From: Escherichia coli
GTDB lineage: Bacteria > Pseudomonadota > Gammaproteobacteria > Enterobacterales > Enterobacteriaceae
Assembly (NCBI RefSeq): GCF_003334785.1
Contig: NZ_QOWV01000016.1
DNA: 64,000 nt
Strand: one strand, 5' to 3'
Part shown: in pieces, positions 21,351 through 64,000 of the stretch
Layout of the letters: each line of letters opens with the position of its first letter
How positions within the stretch are numbered: the stretch's first letter is position 1
Made by a program: the position numbers and the translations under genes
Notes under the pieces: generated by a model
Seen by the model: the letters and a program-made list of their open reading frames with translations, nothing else
Database searches by the model: none
Told to the model about the DNA's origin: nothing

Positions 21351-21447
21351 GCCAGATGCGGCGTAAACGCCTTATCCGGCCTACAAATTCTTCCAAATTC
21401 AATATATTGCAGAAATCATGTAGGCCTGATAAGCGTAGCGCATCAGG
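21351..21447. repeat. REP/BIME palindromic units between ysaA and avtA
   Basis: gccagatgcggcgtaaacgccttatccggcctac ... gtaggcctgataagcgtagcgcatcaggc. Confidence 0.7.
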
Positions 21448-40128: not shown

Positions 40129-40362
40129 TCGCTAAATAATACAGCAACCTTTAATAATCTTCTGCTGAATAAAGATTATCTCATATATTAATTTTATGAG
40201 ATTTTTTTAGGATTATATCAAGGAGAAGAAACAAACTTATTAAGCTAGAATAGCCACGGGTGCTTGAGACTGTTTGTCTCAGGTATTCACCGAAAGGCAG
40301 ACAGAGAAAAGCCCCACCTGACTATAAATCAAAGTTTGTACTGACCCCAAAAAGTTGGACAG

Positions 40363-41214
40363 TTAAACACGAGGCATATAGGTCTGATTCCGATATTCAA
40401 TTGGAGTCAGACCTTTTAATTTCAGGCTAATTCTTCTGCTGTTGTAGTATTCAATATATTCCGTAACAGCATCCTTCAGTTCGCTTATATTACTGAACTC
40501 ATCAAGATAAAAACACTCCGACTTTAAGGTTCCAAAGAAACACTCCACCACAGCATTATCCAGACAATTGCCTTTTCTGGACATGCTTTGTTTAATACCA
40601 TGTTCTTTAAGGATATTTTGATATCTTCTCATACGATACTGCCATCCCTGGTCAGAGTGCAGAACAGGATGCTCGTGAGGATTAAGCTTTTTGAATGCCT
40701 GATCGAGCATATTCTCAACCATGTTCATCACTGGTCTTTCCGAAAGGCTGTAAGAAATAACTTCGTTGTTGAAGAGATCTATTACTGGAGACAAATACAG
40801 CTTGCGCCCATTGACTGCAAATTCAGTAACATCGGTAACCCACTTCTCGTTTGGCCGCGTAGCCTTGAAATCTCTTTGGAGAACATTAGGGGCGGTTTGC
40901 CCTACCTCTCCTCTGTAAGAGCGGTATCGCTTGACCTTAATCGCTGCTTTAAGTGAGAGGGTTCCCATCAGGCGCTGAACAGCTTTATGGTTAATCTGTT
41001 TCCCTTCTCGATGAAGAGACAGCGTTACCCTACGGTATCCGTATCGGCCTCTATTCTCGTGATAAATCTCACTAATACGCTTTTTAACGTCCGCATACTT
41101 GTCAGGCTTGCTGAGAGCCTTTAGATGATAATAAAACGTACTGCGCGGTATCTCCGCAGCCCTGAGAAGCTCATCAAGAGGATAAAACTGCCTTAGCTCG
41201 TTGAGTACTTTCAC
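40363..41214 (-). CDS. insK: IS150 transposase OrfB (DDE catalytic domain)
   Basis: 283-aa ORF recognised. Confidence 0.9.
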
Positions 41215-53719: not shown

Positions 53720-54053
<334 letters not shown>

Positions 54054-54055
54054 CG

Positions 54056-54140
54056 TAGGCCTGATAAGACGCGTCAGCGTCGCATCAGGCAAATGTGCCG
54101 GCCATTGTCGGATGCGGCGCGACCGCCTTATTCGACCTAC
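54056..54140. repeat. REP/BIME palindromic units
   Basis: gtaggcctgataagacgcgtcagcgtcgcatcaggc ... gccggccattgtcggatgcggcgcgaccgccttattcgacctac. Confidence 0.7.
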
Positions 54141-56341: not shown

Positions 56342-56450
56342 AGGCAAAAATGCCTGATGCGCTCCGCTTATCAGGCCTACGAAAATTCTGCAATGTATTG
56401 AATTTGCACGATTTTGTAGGCCGGATAAGGCGTTAACGCCGCATCCGGCA
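56342..56450. repeat. REP/BIME palindromic units between dppA and dppB
   Basis: gcctgatgcgctccgcttatcaggcctac ... gtaggccggataaggcgttaacgccgcatccggca. Confidence 0.7.
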
Positions 56451-60577: not shown

Positions 60578-61849
60578 TTACTCAATCAGCTTCAACAGTG
60601 GCGACAAGCATAGCAAAATGCCGTACAGCAGAATCAGCCAGGCTTTAAATCCGCGAAGTTTTTCCAGTTGTGCGACTTTATAGATCAGGAAAAACGGAAT
60701 GAGGCACGACACAATACCATATAACGGGCTTCCCAACTGAAAGAACACCAGCACCGATACACGAAACGAAACCCAAATCGTCAACGTAATGACGATAAAA
60801 GCGCAGATCGCTAGAGTCAGCACGCGTGAGTTAATTTTCTTGGTATCAATAATTCGGCTTAACAGATTGAGAATAATGCCTTTAATGGCCTCGTGGAAAC
60901 CGAGATAAATGCCAAAGAATGCGGTCAGTACGGCAAAGATATTAAGCACCGTAGAGGTGATATGAATGATATGCCCAGGGATCACCTGCGCGGCCAGCGC
61001 CAGTGCTGAGATATTTTGTTCAAAGGCAGAAACGGCTTCTTCGTGGCTAATTGAGAAGGTAAACGAAAAGGCAAAAAACAGGATCACCGCGATGAGCGTG
61101 ATATAACTAATTCGGTGGGTACGCAGCGCGAGCCGGGTTGCCAGTACTTTATCCGCTTCCCGTTTACGATAGGCAATATTCATTGGGTTAAGTACCTGAA
61201 TAAATACTGCAGAAAAGAAGCAAAATGGAATGGTAAGCAAGACATCGCGGAAAAAGACGGAGGCTTGCGGGAAGGCGGTTATATTGGCGAAATTCCAGTG
61301 CGGGATCATCGCAAAACCGAACACGACAATAATCCCTACTTTGACCACCACCATTGGCCCGGAAATCTTAAACAGTAATCGTTCACCACCAGACGCAATC
61401 GCCACCAGTACGGCGAAAATAGCGACTTTATAAAGTAGAGATTGTGAAAGATCGGCATCGGTTAAACCGAAGGTTTTCAGGTACGAGGCGCTGTCGAAAA
61501 CCACGGAGAGAGAGTAGATAAAAATCCCGTGGATAATCATCAAAAAGTAGATAACCCCGAGGAAAATTCCCCAGTTCTTCCCCAGGTAATGACTGATAAT
61601 ATCGGTGTAGTCATTACAGGAATCGCTTTCAGAAAGGGTTTTTAAATAAATGTCCTGCACTACCCAGGTGGCAGGATAAGCAATGATCGCTGCGGTAATA
61701 AATACCCAAATTCCCTTCAAGCCAATTTGTACTGGCATCAGCACGGTTCCGGCACCAATCGCCATGCCTATGCATAATAAAACCCAGCCGAAGTCGTAGC
61801 GTGTAAACGGCAATTTCTGATTGTGTTTCGATAGTGTGTTGTGCTGCAT
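60578..61849 (-). CDS. yhjV: amino-acid transporter family membrane protein
   Basis: Recognised N-terminus [22 protein letters not shown] at 61849 (423 codons); track's 21-codon 5' extension rejected. Confidence 0.85.
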
Positions 61850-62207
61850 AAAGTCCTGTCCAGAAAGAAGTCGGCCTCGCAAAAATGAATAAACCCAGTT
61901 TCTCTTGCGCAACAGGTGGAGAAGTCGAATACGCAGTATGTAAAAAATGAGGCAACAGATTCACTGGGGAGGTCGCGAGGAGGCGCAATTCTACAAAATT
62001 GCGCATTTCACTACCAGTCTGGAGTCAGCCCGGATATGAACTGCAACTATTGCAAATAAAGAAATTAAGCTGGAAGGCATCGCGCAATGAGGAAGATTGC
62101 CGGGTGCTGACAGTAAAAAGCAATCGTAGAATCAGCGGCAAGCCGGAAAGGTTCCGGTGAGGCGCAATGTTGCGGGGGCTTTATCCCTGGTGGCATTGGT
62201 TGCTGGA

Positions 62208-62276
62208 GAGAGAAAACCCCCGCACGTTGCAGGTATGCACCTGACAACACCACGGGGGCTAATCTTGACTCTAGAC
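62208..62276 (-). ncRNA. rdlD: candidate Rdl-type antisense RNA for ldrD
   Basis: Minus strand reads gtctagagtcaagattagcccccgtggtgttgtcaggtgcatacctgcaacgtgcgggggttttctct: long GC-rich hairpin (cccccg...cggggg) plus U-tract, 50 to 115 nt upstream of ldrD; boundaries approximate. Confidence 0.5.
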
Positions 62277-62324
62277 CACTCAAGAATAGCCGCGAAACGT
62301 TGTCATTACAACACAGGCGGCTAT

Positions 62325-62432
62325 ATGACGTTCGCAGAGCTGGGCATGGCCTTCTGGCATGATTTAGCGGCTCCGGTCATTGCTGGCATTCTTGCCAGTA
62401 TGATCGTGAACTGGCTGAACAAGCGGAAGTAA
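62325..62432 (+). CDS. ldrD: Ldr-family type I toxin peptide (35 aa)
   Basis: MTFAELGMAFWHDLAAPVIAGILASMIVNWLNKRK from ATG 62325, inside a longer track ORF; recognised Ldr peptide. Confidence 0.85.
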   Translation: MTFAELGMAFWHDLAAPVIAGILASMIVNWLNKRK

Positions 62433-62482
62433 CGTGTCATGCGGGCGTCAGGCTGCCGTAATGGCAATTTGCGCCCGGACCA

Positions 62483-62513
62483 GGCCGCAGGGGGGAAACT
62501 CTGCGGCCTTTTT
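62483..62513 (+). terminator. hairpin plus T-run between convergent ldrD and bcsG
   Basis: ggccgcag gggggaaact ctgcggcc followed by TTTTT. Confidence 0.65.
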
Positions 62514-62518
62514 CGTTC

Positions 62519-64000
62519 TTACTGCGGGTAAGGCACCCAGTCGCCGCCGTTCAGGCGAACGTACGGTTTATCCTGGTATTGAATAACTACTGCATTTGAG
62601 TTCTCGGAGACCGGTGCTGTTTGTGGCAACCCACTGGTGAGTTTTTTCCAGTCAACATTGTCTTCGGTGAAAATCTTGCCATCGAGAACGCGAACCACCA
62701 GATCGGAGATAGCCAGGAAGCTGCTCGGTTGTTCGATGACAATCGGTGCCCCCTGATGCGGTGCCTTCATGCCGAAGAATTTCACCCCAACGGGGACGTC
62801 GGTGATAGACGGGCTAGGGATATCACGTAGGCCAGATACCTGCATTCTGTCGCCCTTCAGCGCGCCGCCGTGTTCCGGCACCACGACCACCATCACTTTA
62901 CGACCCGATTTCTCAAGTTCAGTAAAGAAGGCGTCCAGTTCATCAAAGAATTTCTGCGCCCGCGCTTTGTAATCCGCTGTTTTGCTGACCCCCGGATAAT
63001 GGTTGCCGTCATGCAGTGGAAGAGTGTTGTAGAACGTGGCACTACGGCTGTTTTTATCTTTTTCGGTAACGTCCAGCCAGCGGTTAAGCACAGCGGTATC
63101 GTCATAAACCGGCGAACCATCAAAGCCCAGCAAAATAACCGGCAGATTTGTTTGATCCATCAATTCGCTCTGCATGCCGCCATTTTCGCGAACTTCTTTC
63201 AAAAAACCGCCGAACTGGCCGTTATGTCCCATCATCAGGTGCTGGGTAAAGCCCAGTTTCGAAAGGTTATCAAACAGATAGCAGTCGTTATTTGCCGGTT
63301 GATACAGATTAGTGTGCGAAGTCTGCCCGCAGCTGGCGCGCAGTAAACGGATCGCCGCCGGGCCACTGTAGGAGGTGGCGGAGTTAAAGTTCTTGAACTC
63401 AATATCGAAATGCGACCACAGTGGATGCGACATCAACCCGGCGGCTTCTATATCCGACCAGGAAAGCGAACAGATGTTAATCACCAGTAGTTCAAATGGC
63501 TGAGCATCAGCGGGCAGCGAAGACGGGAAGGTCGATTTACGTTTCGCCTCCGCGTTATAGAAATTATTCAGCCAGGCGTTAAGGTTCGCCGTTGTTGGCG
63601 GTGCAGTTTGTGCGGGCATATCACCCACTACCGGTGCGCCACCCGTCGCCGCAACGGTTGCCGCTGCGTTACCACCCGTCGTTGTTACAGTGGTCGTCGG
63701 TTGTCCGGCTGGCCACAAGGAGAAACTTGGTCCCGCCAGGGTAAGTACGTTCAGCCATAGCAGTATGGCAACCACAAAAACGGTAATGCGAATCCATTGT
63801 GACAGGAATAACCAGGCCACTAATAAAACAAAAATGGCCCCAATCATCTGCCAGTTAATAAAGCGTGTGACAAGGTCGATTAAATAATCGGTACTGAACC
63901 CCGCCACCTGCGAACCCTGGCTCATTATGCTTTCCGGGCCAGGCAACCAGGTGTCATGCCAGAACAAAGCAAAGCCGATCGGCAGGGCAATCCAGTGGCG
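62519..64000 (-). CDS. bcsG: cellulose biosynthesis protein BcsG, C-terminal ~490 codons (5' end beyond window)
   Basis: ORF runs to the window edge; N-terminal TM segments and C-terminal alkaline-phosphatase-like domain, recognised as YhjU/BcsG. Confidence 0.85.
   Translation of the reverse strand, partial: RHWIALPIGFALFWHDTWLPGPESIMSQGSQVAGFSTDYLIDLVTRFINWQMIGAIFVLLVAWLFLSQWIRITVFVVAILLWLNVLTLAGPSFSLWPAGQPTTTVTTTGGNAAATVAATGGAPVVGDMPAQTAPPTTANLNAWLNNFYNAEAKRKSTFPSSLPADAQPFELLVINICSLSWSDIEAAGLMSHPLWSHFDIEFKNFNSATSYSGPAAIRLLRASCGQTSHTNLYQPANNDCYLFDNLSKLGFTQHLMMGHNGQFGGFLKEVRENGGMQSELMDQTNLPVILLGFDGSPVYDDTAVLNRWLDVTEKDKNSRSATFYNTLPLHDGNHYPGVSKTADYKARAQKFFDELDAFFTELEKSGRKVMVVVVPEHGGALKGDRMQVSGLRDIPSPSITDVPVGVKFFGMKAPHQGAPIVIEQPSSFLAISDLVVRVLDGKIFTEDNVDWKKLTSGLPQTAPVSENSNAVVIQYQDKPYVRLNGGDWVPYPQ

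Follow-up and report, generated by a model that had tools for sequence, protein, structure and literature searches.

The 64,000-nucleotide (nt) stretch of Escherichia coli DNA analysed here (contig NZ_QOWV01000016.1 of assembly GCF_003334785.1; hereafter the window) carries the ldrD/rdlD type I toxin-antitoxin pair in the interval that separates yhjV from bcsG. We regard it as practically certain that this locus is LDR-D, the fourth 'long direct repeat' (LDR) of E. coli K-12, and that it follows the toxin and antisense logic of that system, and we found nothing that counts against this identity. The locus is already known and fully annotated, having been characterised since 2002 and being represented in Pfam, Rfam, PDB and the reference annotation. 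The ldrD/rdlD pair (LDR-D) of E. coli K-12 was reportedly described by Kawano et al. in 2002. Four such repeats are present in K-12, each with an ldr gene and an rdl antisense RNA of ~60 nt (PMC4147584).

The identification rests in the first place on sequence identity. The 661 bases at 61900..62560 are 100% identical to E. coli K-12 MG1655 and to many other strains, and matches to them occur in every complete E. coli genome (5426/5426), at a median of 4 places per genome. Window coordinates equal 3762412 minus the coordinate in the reference record NC_000913.3, where the equivalent of 62325..62432 (+) is annotated as ldrD (b4453, 'small toxic polypeptide LdrD') and the equivalent of 62213..62276 (-) as the non-coding RNA rdlD (b4454, 'antisense regulatory RNA RdlD'); RefSeq PGAP records likewise annotate ldrD. 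Sequence, position and orientation between yhjV and bcsG, peptide, antisense RNA and terminator are the same as in K-12, with no difference inside the locus. Over the 3001 nt compared, the sole difference from NC_000913.3 is an A at window 63023 where the reference has C. The change is synonymous, turning a Thr codon of bcsG, which runs on the minus strand, from ACG into ACT, and it sets the K-12-like source strain of the window apart from the reference record. A preliminary description, made by reading the letters alone, had proposed an ldrD/rdlD pair between these two genes, and the K-12 annotation of the identical sequence bears this out, with independent backing from Pfam Ldr_toxin, Rfam rdlD and the PDB entry 5LBJ, 'Small toxic polypeptide LdrD'. 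Its remark that open reading frame (ORF) callers easily miss such loci is fair in general: the PGAP-annotated MG1655 record NZ_CP032667.1 lists ldrD with no rdlD feature, and one locus-tag number is skipped there between yhjV and ldrD.

The toxin was recognised through its peptide. Similarity to Ldr toxins, on which the preliminary description had staked its reading, was found over the whole length of LdrD, with residues 1-35 aligning to positions 1-35 of the 35-position Pfam model Ldr_toxin (PF13940; E = 6.9e-27, 93.7 bits), and LdrD is identical to chain A of 5LBJ (residues 1-35, E = 3.7e-20), a nuclear magnetic resonance entry. The peptide is small and hydrophobic, with a PXXXG motif (P17-V-I-A-G21), a tryptophan (W30) followed by LNKRK, and a KRK C-terminus. 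LdrD thereby displays the defining signature of the Fst/Ldr superfamily as given in PMC7472228: PXXXG in the transmembrane helix, and a tryptophan that separates the helix from a charged C-terminus. A scan of NCBIfam returned no match to an Ldr model and a sub-threshold match to the Fst model NF033608 type_I_tox_Fst (13.8 bits against a cut-off of 26, E = 0.039), which is a distant resemblance only. PADLOC reported nothing for LdrD or for the 25-residue peptide encoded upstream of it.

The antisense RNA was identified as well. The covariance-model search that the preliminary description had recommended matched the Rfam rdlD model RF01813 over its full length (positions 1-66 of 66) with 87 bits against a gathering score of 50 (E = 4.8e-18 in a 6-kb scan and 5.1e-17 over the whole window). 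At its 5' end RdlD has a single-stranded tail of 16 nt; a long G+C-rich hairpin and a U tract follow, and the element ends in GGGGGUUUUCU. The G+C-rich minus-strand hairpin with a U tract that had been read at 62208..62276 is therefore present, its boundaries differing slightly from those of Rfam (62211..62276) and of the annotation (62213..62276). The element has a minimum free energy of -29.5 kcal/mol (z = -3.98), a value that 0 of 200 shuffled sequences reached. The 5' end of RdlD lies 49 nt upstream of the ldrD ATG; the RNA overlaps the 5' untranslated region (UTR) of ldrD and not the ribosome site, being fully complementary to the UTR from 49 to 114 nt upstream of the start codon. A hairpin terminator 3' of the toxin frame, also part of the preliminary reading, is found at 62482..62509. 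Judged by the profile E-values, the elements described here are far beyond chance.

This arrangement agrees with published work. Overproduction of LdrD is toxic, causing rapid growth arrest and killing, and co-expression of RdlD relieves the toxicity (PMC4147584, PMC8309996). The nucleoid condenses within 2 min of LdrD induction, and the peptide adopts an alpha-helical transmembrane structure (PMC8309996). RdlD sits over the 5' UTR and not over the ribosome site (PMC4147584), and both the ldrD and the rdlD RNA have been detected (PMC7373196). The earlier statement that toxin expression depends on the antisense RNA had the relation the wrong way round, since it is repression of the toxin that depends on RdlD. 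The features of the locus are collected in Table 1.

Table 1. Features of the ldrD/rdlD locus and its flanks, in window coordinates
Feature	Position	Strand	Basis and remarks
yhjV	60578..61849	-	Flanking gene, from annotation
Probable ldrD -10 box, TAGAAT	62127..62132	+	Hexamer positions 1, 2, 5 and 6 (T, A, A, T) invariant in 47 LDR copies from five genera
ldrD mRNA, ~378 nt (186-nt 5' UTR, coding sequence, 85-nt 3' UTR)	~62139..62517	+	Inferred from conserved -10 box and terminator
5'-terminal hairpin, GCCGG...CCGG	62143..62157	+	Predicted helix 1; 100% of cells paired
Upstream 25-codon frame MLRGLYPWWHWLLERENPRTLQVCT, candidate 'ldrX'-type leader ORF	62167..62244	+	ORF list
rdlD antisense antitoxin RNA, ~64-66 nt	62211..62276	-	Rfam RF01813; annotated (b4454) as 62213..62276
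rdlD promoter: -35 TTGTAA (62311..62306), 17-nt spacer, -10 TATTCT (62288..62283), +1 G 62276	62283..62311	-	Sequence and conservation
Local hairpin GTTGTCATTACAAC just upstream of ldrD ribosome site	62299..62312	+	Predicted; 96.6% of cells paired
Shine-Dalgarno sequence of ldrD, AGGCGG, 4 nt before ATG	62315..62320	+	Sequence; conserved in 47-copy alignment
ldrD coding sequence, 35 amino acids and stop, MTFAELGMAFWHDLAAPVIAGILASMIVNWLNKRK	62325..62432	+	ORF list, Pfam, PDB, annotation
3' UTR fold-back element	62444..62475	+	Predicted: RNAalifold helices 2, 8, 9 and 10; also in single-sequence fold
ldrD intrinsic terminator: hairpin 62482..62509 (11 pairs, 8 G-C), then U tract TTTTTCGTT	62482..62517	+	Terminator scan
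bcsG	62519 onward	-	Flanking gene, from annotation

For comparison, 47 distinct LDR copies were aligned, recovered by scanning one genome per species for the back-translated motif FWHDLAAP. Loci with 35-residue Ldr frames accounted for 40 of the 44 found by the motif scan, the remaining four being chance hits, and were present in Escherichia, Citrobacter, Kluyvera, Pseudocitrobacter and Salmonella enterica subsp. arizonae and diarizonae. The genomic setting is widespread as well: ldr adjoins bcsG in 17 loci spread over all five genera, and yhjV is present in 14 loci. Within K-12, LDR-D is a member of this ~450-530 bp repeat; between the -10 box and the terminator, its mean column identity to LDR-A, -B and -C is 85%. 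The three other pairs (ldrA/rdlA, ldrB/rdlB and ldrC/rdlC, in tandem between kdsA and chaA) have the same architecture, with an essentially invariant 5' UTR segment (62153..62229) and a common terminator and 3' UTR element. They differ from LDR-D in the peptide (MTLAQFAM.FWHDLAAPILAGIITAAIV.WWRNRK) and in the apical loop and 5' tail of the antisense RNA. LDR-A, -B and -C (NC_000913.3 1268500-1271500) further possess an extra in-frame ATG nine codons upstream that would give a 44-residue form (MLSLQQGGYMTLAQF...), whereas LDR-D reads ACG there, in a shifted frame.

Some Escherichia genomes hold two tandem D-type ldr copies between yhjV and bcsG, ~484 nt apart (L007 7968-8851; L039 3692-4574). 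One Pseudocitrobacter vendiensis copy (L037 1243-1642) has a premature stop (TGG to TAG) that cuts Ldr to 30 residues, and is likely inactivated. A near-identical ldrD (MPFAELGMAF...) on a 503-nt contig labelled Bacillus sp. (L047, coverage 0.66) is most likely E. coli contamination. LDR-like DNA was found in just 19 of 72,556 records of a plasmid collection, all non-mobilizable, several of them 4.8-4.9 Mb in size or carrying bcsG; plasmid-borne LDR was therefore rejected, as the 19 records look chromosomal or mislabelled.

As the preliminary description had stated, the 35-codon frame is contained in a longer one, forming the 3' end of a mechanically called 91-residue ORF (62157..62432, plus strand) with a GTG start. 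The real product might be a longer in-frame protein, of 91 residues from this GTG or of 65 residues from an ATG at 62235, with the 35-residue frame as its C-terminal part only. The upstream frame does reach ldrD without a stop in this copy, and the ATG at 62235 lies within the RdlD target, where RdlD could mask it directly. However, the in-frame fusion is peculiar to D-type copies, in which one extra base before the Shine-Dalgarno sequence joins the upstream frame to ldrD; the 1-nt length difference shifts that frame in LDR-A, -B and -C, which also lack the ATG at 62235 (GGTACAA or GGTAAAA). Among the 47 copies, spacers ahead of the Shine-Dalgarno sequence differ in length by 0-5 nt, which also alters how the two frames stand to each other. 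The 35-residue frame starts at a conserved ATG after AGGCGG in every copy, and the Pfam model is covered by precisely residues 1-35. We consider a longer product barely credible. The 91-residue ORF and the ATG at 62235 were rejected as a real start or as the leader frame 'ldrX' discussed below, being unconserved in LDR-A, -B and -C and across genera, and the 91-codon frame containing ldrD is an accident of D-type copies.

Conservation among the 47 copies also helped to delimit the two transcripts. A sigma-70 consensus scan of 61850..62600 with a cut-off of 9 of 12 positions returned no promoter, the rdlD promoter (8/12 matches) falling below the cut-off, and the annotated 5' end of RdlD together with conservation served to place the promoters instead. 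The cores of both are kept across the five genera. In the rdlD promoter, the T-A-T-n-C-T of the -10 box and the TTG of the -35 box are invariant. On the ldrD side, conservation begins abruptly at the TAGAAT box, from which we infer a transcription start at ~62139-62141. No convincing -35 box was found for ldrD, with CTGACA (62107..62112) lying just 14 nt from the -10 box. A terminator hairpin is present for each of the two RNAs, and the stem of the one behind ldrD keeps its pairing in the 47 copies, four of its pairs with changes on both sides (helix 15). An mRNA of ~378 nt would result. Kawano et al. reportedly found an ldrD mRNA of ~370 nt, consistent with this length.

The 5' UTR is more conserved than the ldrD coding sequence. 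Where copies differ within the RdlD region, they do so mainly in the apical loop and in the single-stranded 5' tail. All 16 consensus pairs of the RdlD hairpin are kept in the 47 copies (16/16) with no two-sided changes, and because the stems are invariant, covariation neither supports nor refutes them. The mirror image of the hairpin on the mRNA strand has 72.8% of its cells paired, a value obtained with an inner-stem register that was partly off.

The ldrD mRNA itself is predicted to be highly structured, with a minimum free energy of -182.3 kcal/mol (z = -8.66 against shuffled sequences). For the 47 copies, the RNAalifold consensus has 98.3% of its cells paired, compared to 39-49% with the partners slid, an advantage inflated by the use of one alignment both to derive the fold and to score it, and 16 pairs show two-sided changes compared to 5.5 in shuffles. 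The aligned copies are moreover related to one another, and we take these structural statistics as support and not as proof. In the 5'-terminal hairpin (helix 1), one pair changes from G-C to C-G in four Kluyvera copies and two pairs show one-sided wobble changes. The consensus fold further pairs GGCGC near the 5' end (62161..62165) with GCGCC near the 3' end (62471..62475), and it joins 62166..62185, around the upstream start, to 62210..62228, the 5' half of the RdlD target.

Pairing is also predicted around the ldrD start. The region 62299..62332, which comprises a hairpin arm and the Shine-Dalgarno sequence and start codon of ldrD, pairs in the consensus fold with the 3' UTR (62444..62468); for example, bases 62317..62321, which overlap the Shine-Dalgarno sequence, pair with 62455..62459 (helix 9). 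Helices 2, 8, 9 and 10, which make up this fold-back, have 96-100% of cells paired, with three pairs changed on both sides and many one-sided wobble changes, in a fold that comes from the same alignment. A hok-like fold-back of the 3' UTR over the ldrD ribosome site is thus supported by the structure predictions. Just upstream of the ribosome site, the local hairpin at 62299..62312 covaries, its pair 62303-62308 being C-G in 25 copies and U-A in 17, and in the consensus and the full-length fold its 5' arm pairs instead with the 3' UTR (62460..62468; helix 8). The covarying hairpin suggests that this part of the mRNA may adopt alternative conformations.

How pairing of RdlD with the 5' UTR represses a toxin whose ribosome site it does not cover is listed in a review as currently unknown (PMC8309996). 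Ldr regulation is considered similar to that of hok/sok (PMC7472228), and Gerdes and Wagner suggested that translation of ldrD is coupled to that of a leader frame, ldrX, in the way that hok depends on mok, a proposal that is unconfirmed (PMC4147584; PMC8167048). The idea of a fold-back and a leader frame has been put forward previously by analogy with hok/sok. We likewise favour an indirect route of this kind as the most likely one, although in it the step from pairing to repression is hypothetical. The full-length ldrD mRNA would be largely closed, its 3' UTR (62444..62475) pairing with the Shine-Dalgarno sequence, the start codon and the 5' end, and the 5' half of the RdlD target (62210..62228) would pair with the start region of the upstream frame (62167..62244). 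The first contact with the mRNA would probably be made by the variable parts of RdlD, the 5' tail and the apical loop. Once the duplex has formed, ribosomes could no longer translate the upstream frame at all or to its end, a passage that would otherwise open the ldrD ribosome site, and the mRNA would in addition be marked for RNase III. A more specific form of the model, which we put forward tentatively and hold to be possible though not probable, has the mRNA kept inert by the 62444..62475 fold-back and activated by 3' trimming together with translation of the frame at 62167; RdlD would pair across the end of this frame, and its variable loop and 5' tail would provide each LDR copy with a cognate antitoxin of its own.

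The candidate leader frame for the indirect route is the one at 62167..62244. It is preceded by a Shine-Dalgarno-like GGTGAGG (62156..62162), its last 34 nt lie under RdlD, and its start, 44 nt 5' of the RdlD target, is the only upstream start that is widely kept (44/47 copies, ATG in 39 and GTG in 5), with the frame ending at variable places. Several observations, besides the inflated advantage of the consensus fold over its controls, weigh against the route. The start is lost in three of the 47 copies, and the frame that begins there has anything from 14 to 88 codons, with indels disrupting it in several copies; because of this variation in length and these indels, conservation of the upstream region reflects RNA and not a peptide. 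Substitutions at the 62167 codon also fit the keeping of an RNA helix (pairs 29-92 and 30-91), and structure, not translation, may be the reason why the ATG is conserved. Among the 47 copies compared, no mok-like ORF overlapping the ldrD ribosome site is conserved in start position or frame. Homology to hok/sok itself was likewise not found at the level of the Rfam family: the match of RF01794 to the ldrD leader (62174..62327, plus strand) scored 24.2 bits against a gathering score of 59 (E = 0.024). Weak as it is, the location of this match is nonetheless in line with the proposed hok-like organisation.

The main alternative to the indirect route is decay that depends on RNase III, and the two are not mutually exclusive. 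If RdlD acted mainly by destroying the mRNA, RNase III would cut the perfect 64-66 bp duplex and the truncated mRNA would be degraded or untranslatable, with no need for a leader frame or a switch, a scheme to which the poor conservation of the upstream frame as a frame is congenial. Capture with p19 indeed revealed a ~21-nt peak of RNase III-generated double-stranded RNA in the rdlD/ldrD overlap, indicating that the sense/antisense duplex is cut, and in an rnc mutant full-length ldrD and rdlD were slightly more abundant and longer-lived and a short ldrD fragment accumulated in that mutant only (PMC7373196). However, the effects of rnc on full-length ldrD were only slight (PMC7373196), reviews describe RdlD as a regulator of translation (PMC4147584, PMC8309996), and cuts 49-114 nt upstream of the start codon would spare the ribosome site and the coding sequence. 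Destruction as the principal mode of action is in our estimation a possibility on the unlikely side. Far less plausible, and indeed highly improbable, is that the locus is an inert relic with Ldr/Rdl similarity and no present function. Such a view could appeal to the lack of a reported phenotype for deletion of any Fst/Ldr family system (PMC7472228) and to copies elsewhere that are occasionally damaged, such as the Pseudocitrobacter one with its premature stop. Here, in contrast, no damage is seen in the toxin frame, the two promoters, the terminator or the UTR structure. Each of the 5426 complete E. coli genomes has them conserved, five genera keep them in the yhjV-bcsG position, and published work has detected both RNAs and found the cloned gene to be toxic.

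The indirect route draws its analogy from hok/sok (with mok) of plasmid R1 and its chromosomal homologues, with which ldrD/rdlD shares the same logic: a stable toxin mRNA with a long 5' UTR, a short unstable cis-antisense RNA located off the ribosome site of the toxin, a proposed leader frame, a predicted 3'-5' fold-back closing the translation start, and cutting of the duplex by RNase III. The differences are that the toxin belongs to the Ldr and not the Hok family, and that no conserved leader frame overlaps the toxin start. With Fst/RNA II (par of pAD1), the system has in common a small membrane peptide with PXXXG, a tryptophan before the charged C-terminus, and nucleoid condensation on overproduction, but the RNAs of par converge and pair at repeats and the terminator, whereas RdlD overlaps the 5' UTR (PMC7472228).

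Elsewhere in the window, the Rfam sok model (RF01794) matched 40258..40397 on the plus strand with 70.1 bits against its gathering score of 59, marking a second type I toxin-antitoxin locus, presumably chromosomal hokA/sokA next to cspA. The cspA 5' UTR and gene region gave a full-length match to the cspA thermoregulator (RF01766; 42096..42523, minus strand, 498 bits). Other RNA elements are a transfer RNA (53720..53793, plus strand) followed by an RtT element (53831..53964, plus strand), naRNA4 (54058..54137, minus strand) and two matches to the repeat-type small RNA ES036 (CssrF) at 56373..56415 (minus strand) and 21385..21427 (plus strand).

Our analysis illustrates that reading raw sequence can recover a small toxin gene together with its antisense RNA, a type of locus for which the output of ORF callers and some pipelines is incomplete. 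Biologically it establishes nothing new at ldrD/rdlD, and its residual value lies in comparative data that bear on the mechanism of RdlD. The comparison of 47 copies narrows the options, with conservation acting at the RNA level, a predicted fold-back onto the ribosome site supported, and no conserved mok-like overlapping frame. If true, the reading in which the ldrD mRNA is held inert by a fold-back and activated by 3' trimming would settle how RdlD acts, a matter that reviews still list as unknown.

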